Positions 7,277-21,333 of a stretch of DNA of 29,672 bases are shown here, one piece after another. Source of the stretch: Pyrinomonadaceae bacterium. GTDB lineage: Bacteria > Acidobacteriota > Blastocatellia > Pyrinomonadales > Pyrinomonadaceae. Within the stretch, counting starts at the first letter, position 1; every line of letters starts with the position of its first letter. Where the stretch lies: NCBI GenBank assembly GCA_031406255.1, contig JANOGZ010001263.1:1-29672 (forward strand), given 5' to 3'. The translations under genes were made by a program, and so were the position numbers. The notes under the pieces were generated by a model, which searched no databases, was not told the DNA's origin, and saw only the letters and a list, made by a program, of their open reading frames with translations.

Positions 7277-8431
<1,155 letters not shown>

Positions 8432-8434
8432 CCG

Positions 8435-9520
8435 TTAGTTTCCCGTGTGCTTGGGCGGCAGCGCCGTCGGCAAAGGCGCGCCGGGCGCCCCGGCGCTGCC
8501 GGCAGTGCGCTCATCACGCTCGTGGCACGATATCCCGTAAACTTCTTCAGCAAAATGGCAGAGCGAATGGTGATCCGGAGTCAGTTCGACGAAGGGGGGA
8601 AATTCTCGCCGGCAGATATCTTCGGCGCGCTCGCAGCGCGGCGCGAAGGGGCAGCCCGCGGGAAGGTGCGCAACATCCGGCGGCAGACCCGGTATCTGGT
8701 ACAGCGCGCCCTGCTCGGCGGTCGGGTCCGGCACAGACCGCAGTAACCCTTTGGTGTAGGGATTACCGGGGCAGGAGAAGAGTTCATCGGTCGGAGCCTG
8801 CTCGAAAACTTTTCCGGCGTACATCACGATGATGTGGTCGGTCATTCCGGCGACGACGCCTAGGTCATGCGTAATCAGGATCACGCTCGTGCCCGTCTCT
8901 CGCTTCAACTCTTTGATCAGCTCGAGAATTTGCGCCTGAATCGTCACGTCGAGCGCGGTCGTCGGCTCGTCGGCGATGAGCAGTTCCGGCTCGCACGACA
9001 GGGCCATCGCGATCATCACGCGCTGCCGCATCCCGCCCGAGAATTCATGCGGATAGCTATCGGCCCGCGTCGCGGCGTCGGGGATACCGACCATTTCAAG
9101 CATCTTGATGGCATGCCCATACGCCTGATCTTTCGTGTGGCCGAGATGCAGCTGCGTGATTTCCATCAGCTGCTTCGAGATCCGCATGAAGGGATTGAGC
9201 GACGTCATCGGGTCCTGGAAGATCATCGCGATTCGCTTGCCGCGGATGCGGCGCACCTCGGTCGGGGTCAGGTCGAGGATGTCCTGCCCGTCGAAGAGCA
9301 CTTCGCCGGAAACGATCTTTCCCGGAGGCTCCGGGATCAGACGCAGCACCGAGAGGTTTGTCACCGACTTGCCCGAACCCGACTCCCCGACGATGCCGAG
9401 CGTTTCGCCACGCTTGAGGTCGAAACTAATGCCGTCGACGGCTCTGACCGTGCCATCCTCGGTCTCGAAATACGTGCGGAGGTCTCTGACTGAAAGAAGA
9501 TTTCCGTCGCGGCTGCTCAT
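8435..9520 (-). CDS. oppD: Oligopeptide ABC transporter ATP-binding protein
   Basis: [30 protein letters not shown] and the C-terminal Cys cluster [10 protein letters not shown]. Confidence 0.93.
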
Positions 9521-9593
9521 GGGCTTACTCGTCCCTCGCTATGTTGATCTTTCGTTCGATGAAATATCCCTCCGGAGCGGCTCGCGGGTGGCC

Positions 9594-10679
9594 TTAAAAC
9601 TTTCGCATCTGCGGATCGAGCGCGTCGCGCAACCCGTCGCCGAGGAAATTCAGCGAGAAGAGCGTCAGCGCCATCGTGACGCCCGGAAAAATCAGTTGCC
9701 AGGGGAAGATCGCGATGTTTTGAATACCCTCGGCGGCCAGGCTCCCCCAGGACGCGAGCGGGGCCTGCACGCCGAGACCGAGAAATGAGAGAAAAGATTC
9801 CTGCAGCATCACGGAGGGGATCGTGAGCGTCGCGTACACGATGACGGGGCCGAGCGTATTCGGCACGATATGCTTGAAGATGATTTTGGCGGTCGAAACG
9901 CCGCCAGCCCGCGCCGCCAGCACGAATTCCTGATTCTTGAGCGAGATCACCTGCCCGCGAACGATGCGCGCCATCGTCAGCCACGAAACGGCTCCGAGGG
10001 CGATGAACAGCAGGAACAATTGACCGAGCGGCGTCTGCCCGCCGAACATCGCCAGCAGCACGATGACGATCATCATGTAGGGGATGGCATAGAGCACGTC
10101 GACGATCCGCATCATCACATCATCGACACGTCCTCCGAGATAACCGGCCGTCGCGCCGTAAGTGATACCGATGATGAGCGAAACGATCGTCGAGATGATG
10201 CCGACCATGAGCGAGATGCGGCCGCCTAAGAGCACGCGCGCCAGAATATCGCGGCCCGCGCTATCCGTCCCCATCGGATGCAACCACGAGAACGAACCGT
10301 CAGGCGCTGTAAAGGGCCCAAAGGATCTGATCAGATTGGAATCTTCCGGAATGTAATCGTAGGTGTAGCCGGTGGTATTGCGAATGATCGGCGGCCCGAC
10401 GAGCGACGCGAGGATAATGATGGCGACCACGATCATCCCGAAAACCGCCAGCTTGTTCTTCAGTAACCGCCGCCACGCGTCCTTCCAGAGAGACGTGCCG
10501 GAGACGGTATCCGTGCCGAGGTCAACCGAGCGCACGTCGCCTTCGCCGACGGCGAGTTCGGGCGCGGTGTGAATCATGTCGCCCGCGCGCGCGCGCACCG
10601 GCGGCGCCGGCGGCGTGCCGAGCGGCGTCAGCGCCGGCTCGGCCTGTTCAGTTTGCGCAAGAGGTCGTTCGTCCTTCAT
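9594..10679 (-). CDS. oppC: Oligopeptide ABC transporter permease
   Basis: LWKDAWRRLLKNKLA, HPMGTDSAGRDIL, EFVLAARAGG (EAA-like loop) and GDGLRDALDP. Confidence 0.93.
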   Translation of the reverse strand: MKDERPLAQTEQAEPALTPLGTPPAPPVRARAGDMIHTAPELAVGEGDVRSVDLGTDTVSGTSLWKDAWRRLLKNKLAVFGMIVVAIIILASLVGPPIIRNTTGYTYDYIPEDSNLIRSFGPFTAPDGSFSWLHPMGTDSAGRDILARVLLGGRISLMVGIISTIVSLIIGITYGATAGYLGGRVDDVMMRIVDVLYAIPYMMIVIVLLAMFGGQTPLGQLFLLFIALGAVSWLTMARIVRGQVISLKNQEFVLAARAGGVSTAKIIFKHIVPNTLGPVIVYATLTIPSVMLQESFLSFLGLGVQAPLASWGSLAAEGIQNIAIFPWQLIFPGVTMALTLFSLNFLGDGLRDALDPQMRKF

Positions 10680-10684
10680 GGTTT

Positions 10685-11605
10685 TTAGTACCGTATGCGT
10701 GGGTCGATGTAAGCGTAGGCCATGTCAACCAGAAAGTTGAAGAGCAAAATCAGGATCGAGATGAAAGCGACGATGCCGATGATCAGCGGTTCATCGCGGT
10801 TCAGATTCGCGTTGATGAAGTAGTTTCCGAGCCCCGGCAGCGCGAAGATTCTCTCGACGACGACCGTTCCGGTCACGAGAAAAGCCAGCGCCGGGCCGGT
10901 GAATGAAACGACCGGAAGCAAACCGCCGCGCAGCGCGTGCCGCATGACGACCTGCCGCTCCCGCAAACCCTTCGCGCGGGCCGTCCGGATATAATCGGCG
11001 CGCAGCACCTCGAGCATTCCGGAACGCGTCAGGCGCGCGATATAAGCCATGTAGATCGCCGAGAGCGTGATCACCGGCATCACCAGATTCCAGCTCGGGA
11101 AACCATTCCAGCGCGCCGGGGGCAGCCAGTACAAGGTCAGCGAAAAGATGAGCACGAGGATCGGTCCGAGCACGAAATTAGGAAGCGAGATGCCGAGCAT
11201 CGCCAGCGCCATCGAGGCGTAATCCAGGCGCGAGTTTTGCTTCAGCGCGGCCAGTGTCCCGGCGATGACGCCGACGGCCAGCGCCAGCAGGTATGCCATG
11301 ATCCCCAGCGTCGCTGAAATAGGAAGGGTGCGCGCCAGGATGCGGAGGACGGATTGCCCCTCATACTTCAGCGATGTGCCGAAATCACCGCGCAGGACGT
11401 TGCCGATCATCCGGCCGTACTGCACATACCACGGCTTATCGAGCCCGTATTTCTCGCGCAGGTTTTTTTCGATGGCGGGCGGGAGCTTTTTCTCGGACGT
11501 GTAGAAATTGCCGGGCGCGAGCCTGATCAAGCCCCACGTGAGGCTGATGACGATCAACATCATTGGCACAATGACGATCAAACGTCGGATGGCGAATCGA
11601 AACAT
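10685..11605 (-). CDS. oppB: Oligopeptide ABC transporter permease
   Basis: YGLDKP, GDFGTS, DYIRTARAKGL and YAYIDPRIRY. Confidence 0.93.
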   Translation of the reverse strand: MFRFAIRRLIVIVPMMLIVISLTWGLIRLAPGNFYTSEKKLPPAIEKNLREKYGLDKPWYVQYGRMIGNVLRGDFGTSLKYEGQSVLRILARTLPISATLGIMAYLLALAVGVIAGTLAALKQNSRLDYASMALAMLGISLPNFVLGPILVLIFSLTLYWLPPARWNGFPSWNLVMPVITLSAIYMAYIARLTRSGMLEVLRADYIRTARAKGLRERQVVMRHALRGGLLPVVSFTGPALAFLVTGTVVVERIFALPGLGNYFINANLNRDEPLIIGIVAFISILILLFNFLVDMAYAYIDPRIRY

Positions 11606-11620
11606 CGGCTTTCTTCCTCG

Positions 11621-13666
11621 CTAATCGGCCGTTTTGAGTAAATCGTTGACGCTCGGGAAATCGGTCGTCTTCGGGAGACCCCGATCCCACTTCGCGGCAT
11701 CGTGCTCGATGTAGACGAATTTCCACGCGTGGAGCGTCTGCGGATTCGGATACAAACCCTTCACATAAGGCTTCTTCACCCAGTTGGTGGCGTTCGTGTA
11801 GAGCGGAAGGATCGGCTGCGCATCGAGCAGGATGGCCTCGGCCCTGGCCAGCAATTCGTACCGCTTCTGTGGATCGAGCGTGCGGTTGGCCTCGTCCAGC
11901 ATCGCGACGTATTTCGGATCCGTCCACCCCGTGCCGTTGTCACCCTCGAGAGTGGTGAACAGATTGAGGAAGGTAAACGGGTCCATGTAATCGCCTACCC
12001 ACGCGCCGCGGATCGTCCCCTTGTATTCGAGCTTGGAACGATAGTTGAGAAACGTCTTCCACTCCATATTCTTGAGCGGGATCGTAATCCCCAGATTCTG
12101 CTTCCACTGCGCCTGCAGAAACTCGGCGATCTGTTTGTTTCGCTCCTGCGTGTTGTAGGTGTATTCCACATCCTTGATCGGAAATTTCTTCGGATCGTAA
12201 TTTCCGCTGGCGTCGCGGTATCCGGCCTCGGCGAGAAGTTTTTTCGCTTTTTCCGGATCAAAGGGATCGCCCTTCGGCTGCGGATAATTGGGGAAAATAC
12301 CTTCCGGAGTGAAGGCCGTCAGCGGCTTCACGACCCTCTGGTAGTCGGCAAGCGCCACCTTATCAATCGCCATATTGAAAGCCTTGCGTACGCGCTTGTC
12401 ATTCATCGGCGGCTTCGTCGTGTTGATCATGACATACGTGGTCGCCACTTCCGGCGCATCCATGTAGTCTTTCAGCGGACGGATCAGGTCGACCCAGCTG
12501 GTTGGAACCGTGTGGTTGAGAACCCCATCAACCTCGCCCGCCTTGTAGAGATTCATCATCGTCGTTGAATCTTCGAGCGGATAAAAGTTGATCTGATCGA
12601 GCTTGACGTTGGCGGCATCCCAGTACATCGGATCGCGCACCACGATCAACTCATTGTAGGGCCGCCACGTTTGCAGCTTGAACGGGCCGCTCGTCACGAT
12701 GTTGGCCGGCTCGGTCCAGGCCACTCCGTGTTTTTCGATCGCTTTACGCGGCACCAGACGGAAAAGCTGATACGGAAGCAGACCGATGAAGAAAGGCGCC
12801 GGCTGGGTGAGCGTCAGTCGCAGGGTGTAGTCATCGATGGCCTCGACGCCCATATCTTCAGCCTTCACGGGGACGAACTCTTTGCCCTCGACGGCCGCTT
12901 TGAGCTTCGGATTCGCCTCGATCGCCGTGGCGCGCTTTTTCTCGTCGCTCGGCAGCACGAGTCGCGCCGGCGATTGCATGAAGCGGTTAAACGGCGTATC
13001 GAGCGACGGATTTTGTCCGGTCGCGGGGAGTTCCGGCGAGTGTGGTGTAGCTATTGCGGGCGTCGCGCTCGGCGGCTCTTGTTGCGGCGGCGGTGGTTGC
13101 AGCGCCGGGGCGGCCCCGGCCTTCTCCGTTTCAGCCTTCACATCCCTTTCCAGCACATATTGGCCGGTGCGCGCGTCGCGCACGAAGACGTCTTTCTCGT
13201 TGTAGCTTTGCGCGTATTTAATGTAATAGGCGAGATAGGCGGAGCGCGCCGCGAGTTCGGGCGAGAGACCGCGCCGGAAGGTATAGACGAAGTCCTGTGC
13301 GGTGATCGGCTCGCCATTCGACCAGCGCGCATTCTTCCTGAGGTGGAAGACGAATCCGGACGAGTCGGAGTTGGTCTCCCAGCGCTCGGCGACCGCCGGT
13401 ATCGCCTCCATCGTCACCGGATGATATTCGACCAGGCCGTCATACAGAGCCATGTAGATGCGCGCTTCGGGCTGGCCGGTGCTGACCTGCGGGTCGAGCG
13501 ATTCGGGCTCGGAGCCGGAAACGTAGCGCAGGATCTGGCCCTCGGGCGGCTCGGTCTTGCCAAAATACTCGGCATTGCTCGCCTGACTGGTGCAGGCGGT
13601 GGCGAGCAATGAAAGCGTCACGAGAACCACGCCTAGTTGGAACCAACGGGCACGAATATTAATCAT
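11621..13666 (-). CDS. oppA: Oligopeptide ABC transporter substrate-binding lipoprotein
   Basis: Lipobox LATAC, EPESLDP, RWSNGEPITAQDF, VTSGPF and RGAWVGDY. RBS GGAG precedes the ATG. Confidence 0.92.
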   Translation of the reverse strand: MINIRARWFQLGVVLVTLSLLATACTSQASNAEYFGKTEPPEGQILRYVSGSEPESLDPQVSTGQPEARIYMALYDGLVEYHPVTMEAIPAVAERWETNSDSSGFVFHLRKNARWSNGEPITAQDFVYTFRRGLSPELAARSAYLAYYIKYAQSYNEKDVFVRDARTGQYVLERDVKAETEKAGAAPALQPPPPQQEPPSATPAIATPHSPELPATGQNPSLDTPFNRFMQSPARLVLPSDEKKRATAIEANPKLKAAVEGKEFVPVKAEDMGVEAIDDYTLRLTLTQPAPFFIGLLPYQLFRLVPRKAIEKHGVAWTEPANIVTSGPFKLQTWRPYNELIVVRDPMYWDAANVKLDQINFYPLEDSTTMMNLYKAGEVDGVLNHTVPTSWVDLIRPLKDYMDAPEVATTYVMINTTKPPMNDKRVRKAFNMAIDKVALADYQRVVKPLTAFTPEGIFPNYPQPKGDPFDPEKAKKLLAEAGYRDASGNYDPKKFPIKDVEYTYNTQERNKQIAEFLQAQWKQNLGITIPLKNMEWKTFLNYRSKLEYKGTIRGAWVGDYMDPFTFLNLFTTLEGDNGTGWTDPKYVAMLDEANRTLDPQKRYELLARAEAILLDAQPILPLYTNATNWVKKPYVKGLYPNPQTLHAWKFVYIEHDAAKWDRGLPKTTDFPSVNDLLKTAD

Positions 13667-14007
13667 CGCCTTTTACTCCGGTACTTCTGGTTAACCCGAC
13701 ATTATCGCCGCTTCGGCAAACCGTCGGGAAGGTGACGCGGGGAAATCTGATCAAGCCCCATATGCTGGGTTCGGGGGAACAATTTGGTTAAAGTTACTTC
13801 GGCGGACGGGGGAGCACGAACAAGACCGCGACCTACCAGTCTTAAGCATTCAGGGGCTGGCCTCACGTTATCATGCGTCCGCTTTCCCAATCAAGATGTA
13901 CTGCGCCGCGACGGGGTTAAACTCAACGATGCTCAGAGCGGAACATCTCGTTGCTTCCGGCGCGGCAGATTTCAAGCCGGATATTTACTCGCTACGTTCG
14001 ATCCGGA

Positions 14008-15927
14008 TCACTCGGCCTGCTTCGGCGGTTTCCAGGACGTATCTATCCGCACGCGTTTTAACGAAGGCGCATCCAGCAGATTGGCGTCAAAGCCGCTGAC
14101 ATAGGGCTTTACGAGCGCGTAGGAGGAAGCGAAATAGACGGGGATGGCCGGCAGCTCCAGCAGCGCCTGCTCTTCAGTGAGGATTTGTCGAGGCGCCGAG
14201 ATGTCAGCCGTTTGCTGCACTTCGGTCGCTCCGGACTGCGCCTCTCGCACCACTGGGGAAGGTTCGGCTGTCGCCTCCGGCGATGCTTCGCCGAGCTCTC
14301 CCACATCCTCCCCGGAGGTCCTGGCCGGCTGATCGAATATGGCCAAAATGGTCGCCTCCTCATCCATTGTTTGCATCACCACGCTGCGCCGCGCCAGATC
14401 ATAATCACCGGCACGCAGCGCCGCTTCATAATCATCCCAGCCGCGCATGTCCACATCCGTCTCCACCCCGAGAGCAGTGCGCCACATCTCGGCGACCGCC
14501 AGCGCCACGGTGCGGTGCTGTTCATTGCGATTAATGAGCAGACGTATGCGCGGGAAATTTGCCCCGCCGGGAAATCCCGCCTCGGACAGCAGACGCCGGG
14601 CTCTTTCCACATCATGCACGAGAGCGTGCGCGGTTCGCTTTCTCGCACCCGTGGTTTGATCGCCCGTTGACGGCACCGGGATAAACCTTCGCGCCGGTTC
14701 TGTTATGCCCTCCATCGTATCGGCGCTCAAACGATCGCGATCGAGCGCGATGGTGAGCGCTTCACGCACACGCCGGTCAGTGAACGGAGCACGCGTCATA
14801 TTAAAACTATAGTAAGTCAGCGCACCATACGTGACACGGCGAAAATCCTTGTATGGAGCCAGCAGTTTGAGCGCCAGCGGCTCGAAAGCGGCGTTGGTCA
14901 CCGCGTCCACAGCGCCCCCACGATAAGCGGCGAGCGCCTCTTCCGCATCACGCGCCGCGACAAAACGGACACGATCCAGCGCCACCGCCTTGCTGTCCCA
15001 GTAGTTTCCGTCGCGTTCCAGCACGACCCCGTCGGATGCCCGATCGGTAAGCCGAAAGGCGCCGTTTGAGACAACACCCGGCGCTGGTTGCTCCTCTGGG
15101 CCATGCCCCCCGCTCCCTTCGCTTGAAGAAACATCAGCATCGTTTTTCGTGCTCAGCTCATGCACGGGACGAAAGACCGGATGGGCCACCAGCGCCGGGA
15201 AATTTCGGTCAGGCCGCTGCAGGCGAACACGAAGGACGTGTTGACCGACGGCTTCGGCGCCGAATGTGGCTCCGCCGTCGGGCGGCGTGAGAGATTCTTT
15301 CGCTTGCGGCTTGGCCGGCGGAGAAACGCTTCCGCTCTCCTGCTGCTGCTGTTCGGGCGCGGGCGGCGCGTCCGCGGAAAATTCTTTACTCTCACCTCTT
15401 CTGCGCGCGCCTTCGATGTTTTCTAAAAGGCGCGCGTGCGGCGCGCGTTCGCCGAGCTGCCTGATGCGTTGCCACGAGCGCACGAAATCCTGCGCCGTGA
15501 CCGGGTCACCGTTCGACCAGCGCGCATCCGGACGAAGATAAAACGTCCAGTGGCGTCCATCCGGCGAGGATTCCCAGCGGGTCGCCACCGCCGAGACGGG
15601 GGCCAGATTGCGCGGGTCATAATCGGTCAGCCCTTCAAACATCGCGCGCACGACATCAGTGTCGGGCGGAGCCGCCGCCAGCGCCGGATCAAAGATTCGC
15701 GGCAATCCTCCATCACTCCAGCGAAACTCCTGCGCGCGCCGAGGCGTCACCACACGCCCGTAGTAGGGCTCCACCTCCTCCGACATGAAACATCCGCCGC
15801 CCATCACCGCAATAATCAACACTGTTATGAGCGCGACGCGTAACCACCTGGCGGACGAATCGAGACGACGTACGGAAACGGCGCGACTGCCATCGGTGGG
15901 CCTAGTTGTCGCTGTCGGTCGCATCAT
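14008..15927 (-). CDS. Second, divergent OppA-family substrate-binding lipoprotein
   Basis: Hydrophobic stretch then GGGC lipobox, FDPALA, RWSNGDPVTAQDF, VSNGAF and DRRVREAL. The start is uncertain (15927, or 15960 as in the ORF track). Confidence 0.85.
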   Translation of the reverse strand: MMRPTATTRPTDGSRAVSVRRLDSSARWLRVALITVLIIAVMGGGCFMSEEVEPYYGRVVTPRRAQEFRWSDGGLPRIFDPALAAAPPDTDVVRAMFEGLTDYDPRNLAPVSAVATRWESSPDGRHWTFYLRPDARWSNGDPVTAQDFVRSWQRIRQLGERAPHARLLENIEGARRRGESKEFSADAPPAPEQQQQESGSVSPPAKPQAKESLTPPDGGATFGAEAVGQHVLRVRLQRPDRNFPALVAHPVFRPVHELSTKNDADVSSSEGSGGHGPEEQPAPGVVSNGAFRLTDRASDGVVLERDGNYWDSKAVALDRVRFVAARDAEEALAAYRGGAVDAVTNAAFEPLALKLLAPYKDFRRVTYGALTYYSFNMTRAPFTDRRVREALTIALDRDRLSADTMEGITEPARRFIPVPSTGDQTTGARKRTAHALVHDVERARRLLSEAGFPGGANFPRIRLLINRNEQHRTVALAVAEMWRTALGVETDVDMRGWDDYEAALRAGDYDLARRSVVMQTMDEEATILAIFDQPARTSGEDVGELGEASPEATAEPSPVVREAQSGATEVQQTADISAPRQILTEEQALLELPAIPVYFASSYALVKPYVSGFDANLLDAPSLKRVRIDTSWKPPKQAE

Positions 15928-16018
15928 CTTAAATCGAATATTTTCCCGTCCCGTGTACATTCTCGAAATATTACTGCCGTCTCCTGAAAGGTGCGCGGCT
16001 CGTCATGAGCGCTCGGTC

Positions 16019-17844: not shown

Positions 17845-18261
17845 TCAGGTGAACTTGACGGAAGTCGGCGTATCGCTGGTGTAGGCCGTGATCTCCGGCT
17901 CATCGAGAAACCGCTCGACGGTCAGGACCAGATCTTTGATCCCGCCCGGTTTTTTCAAAAATTCGTTGACGCCGGCGGCGCGCGCCTCGCGCTCGCAGTC
18001 GCTCGCCGTGAACATAATGATGGGAGTATCGCGCCGCTGCGACAATTCGCGCGCGCGACACAGGAGTTCTACTCCGCCCACACCGGGAAGCTCAAAGTCG
18101 AGGACGATGATGTCGTAATGCTCCGCGCTCTCGAGCTTCTTTAACGCGGCTATCCCATCGCGGCAGACGTCGACCTGCCAGCCTTCGAGTTCAAATAATT
18201 GCTTGACGGTGAAGAGTACCAGATCGTAGTCCTCAACATACAGGATTTTGATCTGCTGCAA
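17845..18261 (-). CDS. Stand-alone receiver-domain (CheY-like) response regulator
   Basis: ILYVED, IIVLDFELPG (phospho-Asp), IIMFTA and FLKKP are all intact, with no output domain. The start is uncertain: TTG at 18261 with an upstream GAAGG, or GTG at 18333. Confidence 0.85.
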   Translation of the reverse strand: MQQIKILYVEDYDLVLFTVKQLFELEGWQVDVCRDGIAALKKLESAEHYDIIVLDFELPGVGGVELLCRARELSQRRDTPIIMFTASDCEREARAAGVNEFLKKPGGIKDLVLTVERFLDEPEITAYTSDTPTSVKFT

Positions 18262-18348
18262 TGTTTTGTGCTGCCCTTCAGGAATGTGAGATATGACGCA
18301 TACCGCGTCCGAACTTAAACGGTGCAAGAACACTTCTATCTCACAAAC

Positions 18349-18364
18349 AGCAATTACCGTTCCC
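18349..18364 (-). promoter_or_regulatory. Candidate sigma54 (-24/-12) promoter upstream of the receiver gene
   Basis: Minus strand reads GGGAACGGTAATTGCT against the consensus TGGCACG-N4-TTGCW. GG-N10-GC spacing is exact, and ACG and TTGCT match. Confidence 0.6.
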
Positions 18365-18647
18365 TCACGAAATTCCGGAGTGGCGATTTTTCAGTATTGT
18401 TTTGACCGGGGTTGGTTACAGAGCGGAGGCGGAAAGCTTTATGACCCGGAGAAGATAATCCTCTCCTGATCAATACCCCCGGTACGGAAACGGCGACGGA
18501 GTGAAATAGTTACGCTGTTGAATTTCAAACGCTGGATAAAAATGCTTGTCATCACTCCGTTTACATCTTCTTGCAGGCAACTTTGCAAGATGTATAGGGA
18601 TGCTACAACCACCATCATGTCGAGATTCGACAGGGGATCTTTAACTT

Positions 18648-20963
18648 TCACTGTCCGGCTTGCTTGGTTTTATGAAGGGCGTTACGCTCGCGGTGCTTTT
18701 CGCCACGGATAATGCTGACGCGGCGTCGTTGCGGGGGTCGCCTCGCGTCGCGCAGCTCTTTATGGCGGCCGTTCAGAATAAAAGACAGTCCCTGATGGGT
18801 AATACCGAGGAGTCGCGCGGCGCGCGTCAGTTGCCCGTCGGCGACTTCCAGCGCGGAGCGAATCAGGTTTGCCTCGAAGCGCAAAACTTCTTCGTCGAGC
18901 GAGCACCCGGCCCACGGACTCGCAAAGCCGGAGGTCTGGACCTGGCGGAGGGCGAGAGTTTCCACGGCCGCCGCGGGAATTTCAGTGTTATCCGCTGCCG
19001 TCAGGAAAGTGCGCTCGATGAGGGTGCGCAGTTCACGCGCGTTGCCCGCCAAATGCAGCCGCTGCATCGCATCGAGGCACGCCGGCGCAAAGGTCACTTG
19101 TTTGTGATACTGCCGCTCAGCCTGCGCGATGAAGTGGCGGGCGATGGCTGGAATGTCCTCGGTGCGTTGCCGGAGGGGCGGAAGCTCAATGATAAATGCG
19201 CTCAGTCGATAGTAGAGATCAGGGCTGTAGTGCCCGCGCGCCATATCCTGTTTAAGATTATGGTTCGTCGCCGCGATGATCCGTATATCCACCTGCTCCG
19301 AAGCCGAAGCGCCCAGCGAAGTCACCTCACCATATTCGATCAATCGCAAGAGCTTGGCCTGCGCTGCGGCGCTTAGCTCACCCACCTCATCGAGGAACAA
19401 TGTGCCGCCGACGGCGCCGCGCACCACTCCCGTATGATCGCCGACCGCATCGGTGAAGCTGCCCTTCCGGTGGCCGAACAATTGCGACTCAATGAGCGTT
19501 TCGCACAACGCCGCGCAATTGATCGCCACAAACCGTCCGGCGCGCCCGCTCCATTCATGCATCAGTCGCGCCAGCACTTCCTTGCCCGAGCCCGTCTCGC
19601 CGGTGATCAATGCCGGCCGGTCAGTGATGGCGACCGCCCGCGCATAGTGAAGAACGGCGGTGGTCTTCTCCGAGGCATGCACAAAAGCGGATACTTCGGA
19701 CGCCTTTCCCGAAGCCGATGACGTATCGAGCGCGATGATGCGCCGCGCGCACGCGCGCAGTCGCGCGAGCGTTTCCCCATGCCGTGAGTCGGTCAGAAGG
19801 CGGTCCGCGCGTTCGTAGGTTTTTCGCAACTCATCGGCGGCGAGCCACCCGTCTAGTTCCTCAATCAACGTCAGTGTCGCCCTGCCCGCACCCTCGATAT
19901 CGCCCGCCGTCTCCGCCATATCGACGGCACGTTCGAGCGTCGCCTGCGCTTGCTGATGACGATTCAATCTCGCCAGCGCGACCGCATAGGTCGTCAGAGC
20001 TTCGGCCAGAAGGGCTTGTTCGCCGCCCTTCTCCAGGCTATTGACCGCCCCGCGGGCAGCTTTTTCAGCCGCGGAGTTGCGCCCTTCCACCAGCAGAACA
20101 CGGGCTCGTGTTTCATCAACCTGCGCGGCACTACCCTTATCCTTGAGGCCGATGAACAGACGATGGGCTCTTTCTAAATGCTCTTCCGCATCGCTTAGCT
20201 GTCCGACTCTCAAAAGCAGATAACCGATATTATTCTCTACGCGGGCACGGTATCGCGTATGGCCAGCCTGTTCGAAGTGATAACTCGCCGCCGCGTATTC
20301 GATCAGCGCCTGATCGGTATACTCGCTTCGCGCCTCGGCGACCCCGAGCGTCTCCAACGTATTGCCGAGCGAGTTATGAAATTTGCCTTTGAGGGCGCAA
20401 CTGGTACTCGCTTCAAACAGTGGAGAGGCCTCGGTCAGTAACCGTAGCGCGTCATTCAAGCGGTTGTTTGACATCTCGATGATCGAGCTGCGTAACAAAA
20501 TCAGCGCTTTGAGTTCACTCTCATCGTCGCCAGTTTGCCCTAACGCATCGCGTAGAATAATGCGCGCCTCGTCAAACGCGCCCTCACGCCAGTAGCACAA
20601 CGCCAGGTCGCTTCGTGCCTCGATAGTTTTTGCCGTCTCGCTGAGCGTTTCGTAGATCGTCAGGCTCTCGCTGATCAAGTCCTTGGCGATCTCCTGTGCG
20701 CCTTCAATCTGCCGCGCGCTGCCGATCCATCCCGAGAGCGCCCCCACACGCAGCAGCACTTCAGCCCCGGTCCGCTCATCCAGATCGCCGAGCGCGGGAC
20801 GCTCACCGACACGCGTCCACAAGTCACCCAGCGCATTTCGCGCCGCTTCGTAGCTCCCGGCTTCTTCGAATTCGCGGGCGAGCGCACAACGAAATCGCAC
20901 GCGCTCGCTATAATTACACGCCGGGTTATCGATGCGTTGTATTAATTGGGCAACTAAGTTCAT
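18648..20963 (-). CDS. TPR-repeat, sigma54-interaction-type AAA+ transcriptional regulator with Fis-type HTH
   Basis: About 420 aa of helical TPR-like repeats ([16 protein letters not shown]), then [46 protein letters not shown] and the [16 protein letters not shown]. No receiver domain. Confidence 0.9.
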
Positions 20964-21056
20964 GTGAGGATTAGCTTTCTACCTTTTAGCAAGGTTGTTT
21001 GCGAAATAGCGATTTTTCTTCTCAATGGTGTTATTATCTCCCCGCTCAGCCCCAAA

Positions 21057-21092
21057 AGTTGGTTTACTGCGCGGTAACAAACCAACTATACT
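21057..21092 (+). promoter_or_regulatory. Inverted-repeat operator overlapping a sigma70-like promoter of the small peptide gene
   Basis: AGTTGGTTT-N13-AAACCAACT (21057-21087) overlaps TTTACT-N18-TATACT (21063-21092). Confidence 0.45.
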
Positions 21093-21120
21093 TGATCTTC
21101 ATATCCACGGGAGAAAAACG

Positions 21121-21333
21121 ATGAAACCGTTACGACAGCTCTGCGCCGTCGTTTTACTGACGACGATTTTTGTCCTTCCCGTCTTTGCCGAGGATGGACA
21201 GATGCCGACGCCCACGACCCCACCACAAGTGATCGTCATCCAGCCGCCACCGACGGGTGGTGATCCGGGCGAAGTGGATTCGGTGATGCAGGCTCTTCTG
21301 AACATCTTGCATGGCGTAATATTTTTTGTCTAG
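21121..21333 (+). CDS. Small secreted peptide precursor (70 aa): signal peptide + Pro/Thr-rich segment + hydrophobic C-terminal helix
   Basis: RBS GGGAGA lies 6 nt before the ATG at 21121. The sequence is MKPLRQLCAVVLLTTIFVLPVFA (basic n-region, h-region, VFA cleavage site) followed by EDGQMPTPTTPPQVIVIQPPPTGGDPGEVDSVMQALLNILHGVIFFV. Confidence 0.75.
   Translation: MKPLRQLCAVVLLTTIFVLPVFAEDGQMPTPTTPPQVIVIQPPPTGGDPGEVDSVMQALLNILHGVIFFV

Follow-up and report, generated by a model that had tools for sequence, protein, structure and literature searches.

A divergent small-peptide gene and a TPR enhancer-binding protein in Pyrinomonadaceae: a co-evolving pair and candidate peptide-signalling cassette

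Signalling by peptides that are read inside the cell by tetratricopeptide repeat (TPR) receptors is treated as a hallmark of the Bacillota and of mobile elements, and diderm bacteria, to which the Acidobacteriota belong, are taught to use small molecules. The closest described systems are the RRNPP pairs (Rap-Phr, NprR-NprX, PlcR-PapR, PrgX, Rgg-SHP and AimR-AimP), two-gene cassettes of a small pro-peptide and a cytoplasmic TPR receptor in which the precursor (Phr, NprX, PapR, AimP) carries a Sec-type signal peptide and the genes are divergent in many Rgg-SHP and PrgX-PrgQ pairs. A large survey describes RRNPP as a Bacillota feature (PMC10075063), and our literature search found no paper on RRNPP in Acidobacteria, or on such a system or quorum sensing in Pyrinomonadaceae. 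Here we describe a cassette with these same traits in a contig of 29,672 nucleotides (JANOGZ010001263.1, the whole of which is called the window) from a Pyrinomonadaceae metagenome-assembled genome (MAG; GCA_031406255.1; Acidobacteriota, Blastocatellia; 5.3 Mb, 94% complete), in which a gene for a small, putatively secreted peptide is divergent from the gene for a TPR regulator of the sigma54 enhancer-binding protein (EBP) type. An initial annotation had read the locus as an RRNPP-analogous circuit, and both tests run on that reading, gene adjacency across the family and covariation of the peptide with the TPR groove, were positive. Judged from their sequences, the N-terminal hexapeptide unit of the precursor and the TPR groove face of the transcription factor are a cognate co-evolving pair.

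The genes and domains that form the pair are these:

21121..21333, plus strand: pro-peptide gene, 70 aa, with signal peptide, recognised unit, Pro-rich linker and hydrophobic C-tail; an open reading frame (ORF) belonging to a 118-sequence family (hidden Markov model, HMM, E 1.6e-14)
21121..21189, plus strand: predicted Sec signal peptide MKPLRQLCAVVLLTTIFVLPVFA, cleavage after VFA; n-h-c pattern, A-x-A conserved in 118 members
21196..21213, plus strand: predicted recognised core GQMPTP, unit positions 0 to +5, likely signal moiety, from covariation
21277..21330, plus strand: conserved amphipathic/hydrophobic C-terminal tail DSVMQALLNILHGVIFFV; family consensus ..ALNLLQSVLSLF
18648..20963, minus strand: TPR-AAA+(sigma54)-HTH_8 enhancer-binding protein, 771 aa, predicted peptide receptor; Pfam and NCBIfam EBP models
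19734..20963, minus strand: TPR sensor domain, residues 1-410; AlphaFold2, fold matches and covariation
19188..19679, minus strand: AAA+ sigma54-interaction domain, residues 429-592; PF00158 Sigma54_activat, E 2e-56
18786..18878, minus strand: HTH_8 (Fis-type) DNA-binding domain, residues 696-726; PF02954, E 1.8e-6

The 70-aa signal-peptide gene and the regulator, divergent across 157 bp, were both found where the initial annotation had placed them. The peptide ORF is annotated as a gene in the source record, has a GGAGA ribosome-binding site 6-9 nt 5' of its ATG, and matches no Pfam or NCBIfam family. Among the first loci with enough upstream DNA, 15 of 15 carried a divergent ORF of like build (64-89 aa). 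Across the family the peptide gene is present at 123 of 135 regulator genes, always divergent and at a median of 153 bp (5-95%: 117-210), so that small signal-peptide ORFs are indeed consistent neighbours of homologous regulators, the first of the checks proposed for the locus. An HMM built from 43 divergent ORFs gave 125 matches in ~800 kb of locus DNA, every one adjoining a family gene, and 2 matches among all six-frame ORFs of the 5.3-Mb genome, both divergent from TPR genes; because the model picks out just these two ORFs genome-wide, the pairing of peptide and regulator is more than chance. One locus (L017, genome G017) was excluded from alignment A1, from the covariation set and from the adjacency denominator.

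The 118 distinct precursors share four parts: signal peptide, unit, Pro-rich linker and hydrophobic tail. The signal peptide, called from the n-h-c/A-x-A pattern rather than by a dedicated predictor, is of the type MKxLRxxCAxxxLxLALxLxAFA in the family, and is followed right after the cleavage site by a unit of the form G-[DEQ]-[IM]-x-[TC]-[PG]-[GIV]-[TVA], with the hexapeptide core G-[DEQ]-[IM]-x-[TC]-[PG]. Precursors hold one to four copies of the unit, most having one to three extra copies with the same idiosyncratic sequence (DGQMETP x3, GDILTPG x2, GVIHPG x2, GDISSG x4 and GDMSCG x2 are examples). An internal copy of the first 6-mer with at least 4/6 identity occurs in 59 of 110 precursors, and one with 6/6 identity in 20; the first 6-mer fits the repeats of its own precursor far better than those of other precursors (Wilcoxon p 1.5e-11). 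No two paralogues of a genome share a unit, and one genome holds seven different hexapeptides. The C-tail is the most conserved part of the precursor and shows no covariation with the TPR domain; it may be a handle for processing or export.

Two variants of the peptide gene were seen in other sequences. One RNA-labelled ice metagenome contig has an extra GAT, in frame, between codons 24 and 25 (21192/21193), yielding FAEDDGQM, which resembles the ADDGQM of locus L118. At L102:1979-2432 (minus strand) the gene appears to be broken into two overlapping ORFs, the first unit being in one together with the signal peptide and the remainder in the other, probably through a frameshift or assembly error in that MAG.

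Covariation between the two proteins was measured as mutual information between variable TPR columns and peptide positions in 105 unambiguous pairs, with permutation z-scores. The ten best covarying pairs all lie in the A-helices of TPRs 2-5, on one helical face and with i/i+4/i+7 spacing (top-pair columns: A2 118/119/122; A3 154/158/161/164/165; A4 197/198/201/204/205/208), and covariation does not extend beyond unit positions +1 to +5 on the peptide, nor beyond a single face of TPR A-helices 2-6 on the receptor, as follows:

unit +1: max z 17.8, TPR 204/201/205 (A4)
unit +2: max z 14.8, TPR 278 (A6), 241 (A5)
unit +3: max z 11.0, TPR 164/165 (A3), 198 (A4)
unit +4: max z 14.3, TPR 197 (A4), 241/242 (A5)
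unit +5: max z 18.2, TPR 122/119 (A2), 161/158 (A3)
unit +6: max z 7.0, weak
specificity positions: 118, 119, 122, 158, 161, 164, 165, 197, 198, 201, 204, 205, 241, 278

At 33 control positions, taken from the signal peptide (-8..-1), from +7..+12 and from the final 12 residues, z was 4-7, with one at 9.6, and the best columns were scattered over A helices, B helices and loops. The isolated 9.6 belongs to C-tail position -5, paired with TPR 241, which also tracks unit +2 and +4; this may be a clade effect. Odd and even unit positions map to opposite groove walls, the pattern expected for an extended peptide in a TPR superhelix.

As read from the alignments, the covarying pairings are chemically complementary. 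Residue 204 pairs with +1 as Lys-Asp (35 pairs), Arg-Glu (27) and Glu-Gln/His; residue 122 with +5 as Tyr/Trp/Met-Gly and Ile/Leu/Val-Pro; residue 197 with +4 as Asn-Thr, Val-Cys and Gly-Phe/Tyr/Asn; and residue 278 with +2 as Ser-Met (23/23; R241 goes with Met as well) and His-Ile. The pairing code is valid across all three output classes of the family (see below), and the pair in the window obeys it (E204-Gln, S278/R241-Met, M164-Pro, N197-Thr, L122-Pro). Independent-pair tests on a TPR-domain tree built without the groove columns, on which each trait changes 9-22 times, gave:

+1 Asp/Glu against 204 Lys/Arg: 10.5 same, 0 opposite, 14 pairs, p~0.001
+1 acidic/other against 204 basic/other: 12.6 same, 0 opposite, 13 pairs, p~0.0002
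+5 Pro/Gly against 122 small/large: 7.8 same, 0 opposite, 8 pairs, p~0.008
+4 Thr/Cys against 197 Asn/other: 5.6 same, 0 opposite, 7 pairs, p~0.03

A further combination that looked complementary, acidic +3 with basic 164, was not significant in independent pairs (p~0.125) and was dropped. The second proposed check, whether the small ORFs co-vary with groove residues, was thus answered by one A-helix face, by unit positions +1 to +5 only and by phylogenetically independent co-changes, which lends strong, though indirect, support to binding of the peptide in the TPR groove. The two Asn motifs singled out beforehand as groove-type fared differently: N197 of HNSLG is variable and covaries with peptide +4, whereas E243-N244-N245 of ENNIG are at least 90% conserved.

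The AlphaFold2 model of the sensor (from a 106-sequence alignment) has a predicted local distance difference test score (pLDDT) of 94.8 and 20 helices, with an N-terminal three-helix bundle followed by eight TPR pairs; TPR_12/TPR_8/TPR_1/TPR_19 matches from Pfam fall at residues ~100-351. The top Foldseek matches to the model were LGN/Pins and APPBP2, with the RRNPP receptors close behind (RapF-PhrF 30.4, phi3T Rap with pheromones ~30, RapJ-PhrC 29.0, NprR 28.3, AimR 23.8) and MalT domain III at 26.5; the Rap and NprR fold matches cover both proteins end to end. As modelled, the sensor has the fold of a peptide-binding TPR receptor, similar to the RRNPP receptors, with no claim of common descent. 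Sequence-level homology to RRNPP was considered and rejected: the similarity is only that generic to TPRs, and neither the shared ancestry nor the N-terminal effector of RRNPP receptors was found.

The remainder of the regulator bears out its earlier description as a TPR protein with an AAA+ sigma54 output, the Pfam domains being accompanied by Walker A (GETGSGKE, residue 455), Walker B (LFLDE, 522) and a GAFTGA-type loop, and by AAA_lid_14. The loop reads GSFTDA at residue 501, keeping the F and T and differing at positions 2 and 5, and this is the usual form in the clade. The protein is predicted to be cytoplasmic, since it has neither signal peptide nor membrane segment (at most 13 hydrophobic residues per 19-residue window), and its orthologues are 55-63% identical.

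Residues 1-410 alone match many genes per genome in Pyrinomonadaceae (40 relatives searched), with up to ~8 family members per genome, and at least 5860 non-redundant public proteins, all generically named, carry the TPR sensor. With the sensor profile at E<=1e-40, 7 of 16 Pyrinomonadaceae were matched (the source genome not counted) and there was no match in other Acidobacteriota families among 301 genomes sampled, so that by profile search the TPR-sensor family is confined to Pyrinomonadaceae among the genomes searched. Its members fall into three classes by output:

AAA+ class: ~755 aa, TPR-AAA+-HTH_8
HTH class: ~450-520 aa, TPR-HTH_8
REC class: ~620-650 aa, TPR-HTH_8-REC, the fused receiver being homologous to the separate one in the window

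HTH_8 is kept in all three, and a C-terminal REC is fused in about a third of paralogues. The AAA+/sigma54 output that the initial annotation put at the centre of the circuit is present in the window, and is one of three output architectures in the family. The MAG itself holds at least two further partial TPR-family members on short contigs (C532:8603-9463 and C876:13173-13808), and this genome thus carries several cassettes; the partial gene on C532 has a divergent peptide gene of its own.

The regulatory elements around the pair, and the gene downstream of the regulator, are these:

21029..21037, plus strand: extended -10 TGTTATTAT of the peptide gene; TGnTATGAT-like, conserved in relatives, median 76 nt upstream of the ATG
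21057..21087, plus strand: perfect 9-bp inverted repeat AGTTGGTTT-N13-AAACCAACT; falls in the 5' leader predicted for the peptide mRNA
20987..21004, no strand assigned: predicted operator 1 TAGCAAGgttgTTTGCGA; consensus TTGCAAG-N4-CTTGCAA, 23 bp 5' of the regulator ATG and 24 nt before the peptide -10
18571..18588, minus strand: predicted operator 2 or upstream activating sequence TTGCAAAGTTGCCTGCAA; dyad, ~205 bp upstream of the sigma54 promoter
18349..18364, minus strand: predicted sigma54 (-24/-12) promoter gGGAACGgtaaTTGCT = GGGAACGGTAATTGCT; exact GG-N10-GC spacing, conserved in orthologues
17845..18264, minus strand: single-domain receiver (CheY-like), predicted local sigma54 output; PF00072, E 1.5e-18

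On the peptide side, the TATACT -10 element and the inverted repeat taken earlier for a -35 operator gave way to the conserved extended -10, the more likely peptide promoter on its sequence, and to the TTGCAAG-N4-CTTGCAA operator. The extended -10 at 21029-21037 places the inverted repeat in the transcribed leader and not over the -35. Leader hairpins of unrelated sequence stand at the same place in many relatives (of the CCGCCGC...GCGGCGG and GAGCCTC...GAGGCTC types), which suggests a conserved structured leader, perhaps with a role in stability or attenuation. The operator dyad occurs in 56 of 117 divergent spacers (2 expected from shuffles), at a median of 23 bp upstream of the regulator ATG, a position that most of them share, with the extended -10 sitting 13-14 or 21-24 nt downstream of it in relatives. 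Operator 1 is thus located both inside the regulator's own leader and at a site from which the peptide promoter could be activated or repressed, a geometry that suits feedback of either sign. No sigma54 promoter was found before the peptide gene of the window, and among 46 AAA+-class loci just 2 weak candidates came up in that place, so that transcription of the peptide gene looks to be by sigma70.

On the output side, the exact-spaced -24/-12 element described earlier was recovered as GG-N10-GC at 18349-18364 (minus strand), and rpoN is encoded elsewhere in the genome (contig C1349). In the spacer between EBP and receiver, compared between the window and the two closest orthologues with a downstream receiver, operator 2 and the -24/-12 element are the sole conserved islands. 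Of 43 AAA+-class genes, 19 are followed within 450 bp by sigma54-like sites as against 5 in shuffles, and such sites are at background in the other two classes; 12 of these sites read TGGCCCG-N4-CTGCA and stand 72-93 bp past the stop codon. The genes behind the family's sigma54 sites are receivers and/or a 115-aa AraC-like HTH protein. The gene reported as a lone receiver is indeed single-domain (Response_reg E 1.5e-18) and has the acidic pocket ED, the phospho-acceptor Asp (VLDFELPG), the Thr (MFTAS) and the Lys (LKKP) of receivers; its start is most likely the TTG at 18264 (MQQIKILYVEDY) and not, as first given, the GTG at 18333. A 70-aa ORF between regulator and receiver (18439-18651, minus strand) overlaps operator 2, is not conserved in orthologous spacers and is probably no gene.

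The AraC-like gene (~115 aa, MDxRVQKxIRLMxEDL...) was seen in L065, L067, L068, L069, L072, L074 and L088, ~150-650 bp downstream of an AAA+-class regulator and after a conserved sigma54 promoter, alone or behind a receiver gene; it is absent from the window. The protein may be a second-tier regulator of the cascade.

The flanks of the window are housekeeping DNA (plsX-fabHDF, etfBA, an SCO1/CusF protein, folD, coaE, the Opp operon and a GGDEF/HD-GYP group), and one feature among them had been drawn into the proposed circuit:

7277..15960, minus strand: OppA x2 and OppBCDF, candidate peptide importer, from Pfam

The importer is as earlier described, OppBCDF with two binding proteins (SBP_bac_5), and holds the only Opp/Dpp-type (oligo_HPY) ATPases recovered in this MAG; most relatives have two systems. 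At the orthologous locus of genome G015 the Opp operon is kept ~10 kb downstream, a proximity that reflects synteny among orthologues only. When the flanking ORFs of 129 loci were clustered, the conserved neighbours beyond the peptide gene were the receiver and, in 9 loci, the 115-aa AraC-like gene, with no conserved exporter, protease, modifying enzyme, immunity gene or binding protein (OppA).

We propose that the cassette is a peptide/TPR-receptor system in which the unit is the ligand and is exported, processed and re-imported to switch the regulator, a reading to which we assign a probability of roughly 0.6. The precursor would be exported by Sec, with signal peptidase making the N-terminus of the unit (Gly; preceded in the window by Glu-Asp), and periplasmic proteases, perhaps recruited by the conserved C-tail, would free the unit and its internal copies. 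The short peptide would leave through porins and be taken up again, most plausibly by Opp, and the unit (here GQMPTP, possibly with the preceding Glu-Asp) would lie extended in the TPR groove, its binding switching the regulator. From 18571-18588 the regulator would activate the sigma54 promoter at 18349-18364 and with it the lone receiver, and from 20987-21004 it would control the divergent peptide and regulator promoters as feedback, while paralogues with different hexapeptides in one genome would act as separate channels. For Pyrinomonadaceae at large, which abound in soil, we put at about even odds the broader proposition of multi-channel encoded peptide communication, parallel to RRNPP and independently built, in which re-imported hexapeptides address TPR receptors with sigma54, Fis-type HTH and HTH-receiver outputs through a sequence-readable code. 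In that code, 204 would read +1; 278/241, +2; 164/198, +3; 197, +4; and 122, +5.

Several points weigh against this reading. Covariation is co-adaptation, and says nothing on the place or time of binding; export, cleavage, outer-membrane passage and re-import are each presumed by analogy, and a dependence on cell density is likewise presumed. The Opp operon, whose closeness had been offered in support, is not a conserved neighbour of the paralogous cassettes, and Opp-type importers occur in every one of the 41 relatives searched, whether these carry cassettes or not, so its adjacency here is no evidence. Sequence-profile similarity to NprR (E 2e-5) and RapI (8e-4) is at the generic TPR level and weaker than that to kinesin light chain. 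The groove-facing assignment comes from TPR geometry and helical periodicity rather than from model coordinates, and the residue classes of the independent-pair tests were picked after the contingency tables had been viewed. At the loci themselves, 12 of 135 regulators are without a detectable peptide gene, 24 of 43 AAA+-class loci have no recognisable downstream sigma54 promoter, and the precursor in the window has a single clear unit, (ED)GQMPTP. Four RNA-labelled public runs gave only low-depth contigs of 176-477 nt, from relatives at 95-99%, across the spacer and the peptide gene, and these may stem from DNA carry-over.

The main competing explanation, which we consider unlikely, is cell-autonomous sensing: the TPR domain would bind the unit of the unexported precursor in the cytoplasm and report precursor level or Sec flux, not density, with no re-import. 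A model for it is offered by the class II TPR chaperones of type III secretion systems (T3SSs; IpgC-MxiE and SicA-InvF type), cytoplasmic co-activators whose effect on transcription depends on whether a secretion substrate occupies the TPR. Receptor and newly made ligand share the cytoplasm, the same covariation would be expected, no importer, exporter or protease gene is conserved in linkage with the cassette, and the outer membrane complicates exchange among diderm cells. The covariation, however, begins sharply at +1, with the variable positions -2 to -8 of the signal peptide at background, which fits an N-terminus made by signal peptidase and favours the processed peptide as ligand, and such a peptide would have to come back into the cytoplasm; the presence of several identical units in one precursor also suits multi-copy release better than chaperoning, and the many orthogonal paralogues per genome resemble Rap-Phr repertoires.

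Less probable still, the small protein would serve not in signalling but as a secreted or periplasmic effector (bacteriocin-like, envelope-active, or akin to an unmodified ribosomally synthesised and post-translationally modified peptide, RiPP) that the TPR regulator controls, or against which it gives immunity by binding. A conserved amphipathic C-terminal helix with a Pro-rich region, divergent promoters with a shared operator, and the repeated cores of some RiPP precursors would all agree with such a role, but the surroundings show no conserved gene for a modifying enzyme, a dedicated exporter or immunity, and the regulator, which has full transcription-factor outputs, co-evolves with the short variable N-terminal unit and not with the conserved tail. 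That the regulator is an ordinary TPR EBP with an unrelated input, and the small ORF a co-regulated neighbour or no gene, seems very improbable: TPR domains often serve protein-protein contacts, public annotation names are generic and the peptide belongs to no Pfam or NCBIfam family, but 118 distinct sequences keep the ORF whole and share its tripartite architecture, one variant differs by an in-frame 3-nt indel, and the 123/135 adjacency, with position-specific complementary covariation and independent co-changes, contradicts this account.

If the exported-peptide reading is true, the cassettes would be the first described example from a diderm phylum of peptide quorum sensing through an intracellular receptor, and a large cassette family in the uncultured-dominated soil Acidobacteriota would change the picture of such signalling as a Bacillota and mobile-element trait. 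Cell-cell or secretion-linked regulation in a major soil phylum would become open to study for the first time, and sigma54 activation would join the known outputs of peptide receptors. The covariation code predicts which hexapeptides match which receptors, and single residue swaps that should re-target specificity; naturally orthogonal peptide/receptor pairs would be on offer for synthetic biology.

Among described systems, the sigma54 EBPs (NtrC, NifA, NorR, PspF) share with the regulator an AAA+ domain with Walker A/B and a GAFTGA-type loop and a C-terminal HTH_8, and with the locus a dyad ~200 bp upstream of its -24/-12 promoter and a genome that encodes rpoN, activation here being predicted. 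They differ in that the sensor here is a 410-residue TPR superhelix paired with an encoded peptide, not REC, GAF, PAS, V4R or ACT, in the GSFTDA loop, and in the occurrence of the same sensor on non-AAA+ outputs. The eukaryotic peptide-binding TPR superhelices that resemble the sensor (the APPBP2 degron receptor, LGN/Pins, kinesin light chain) share neither function nor context with it, and have no transcription output and no cognate ligand gene. The T3SS class II chaperones are small (~150 aa) separate proteins with AraC partners and T3SS substrates, whereas the TPR domain here is fused to the transcription factor and its partner is a mini-protein with a Sec signal peptide.

The RRNPP systems share, beyond the cassette layout, the wealth of paralogues in a genome, each with its own peptide, and the lack of dedicated transport genes in the cassette; a ligand of 5-7 residues, extended along the TPR groove, would be a further likeness. 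They differ in host (Acidobacteriota here, as against Bacillota and their phages) and in outputs, which here are C-terminal (AAA+ sigma54, HTH_8, HTH_8-REC) and there an N-terminal HTH or the Rap phosphatase bundle; peptide receptors are not known to act through a sigma54 AAA+ activator, through a Fis-type HTH or through an HTH-receiver fusion. The presumed mature peptide here comes right after the signal peptide and is often repeated, where that of RRNPP precursors is at or near the C-terminus; the precursors here have a conserved hydrophobic C-tail; and similarity in sequence is generic to TPRs. The Pyrinomonadaceae system would thus work like RRNPP, yet in another phylum, with another domain architecture and apart from RRNPP by homology.

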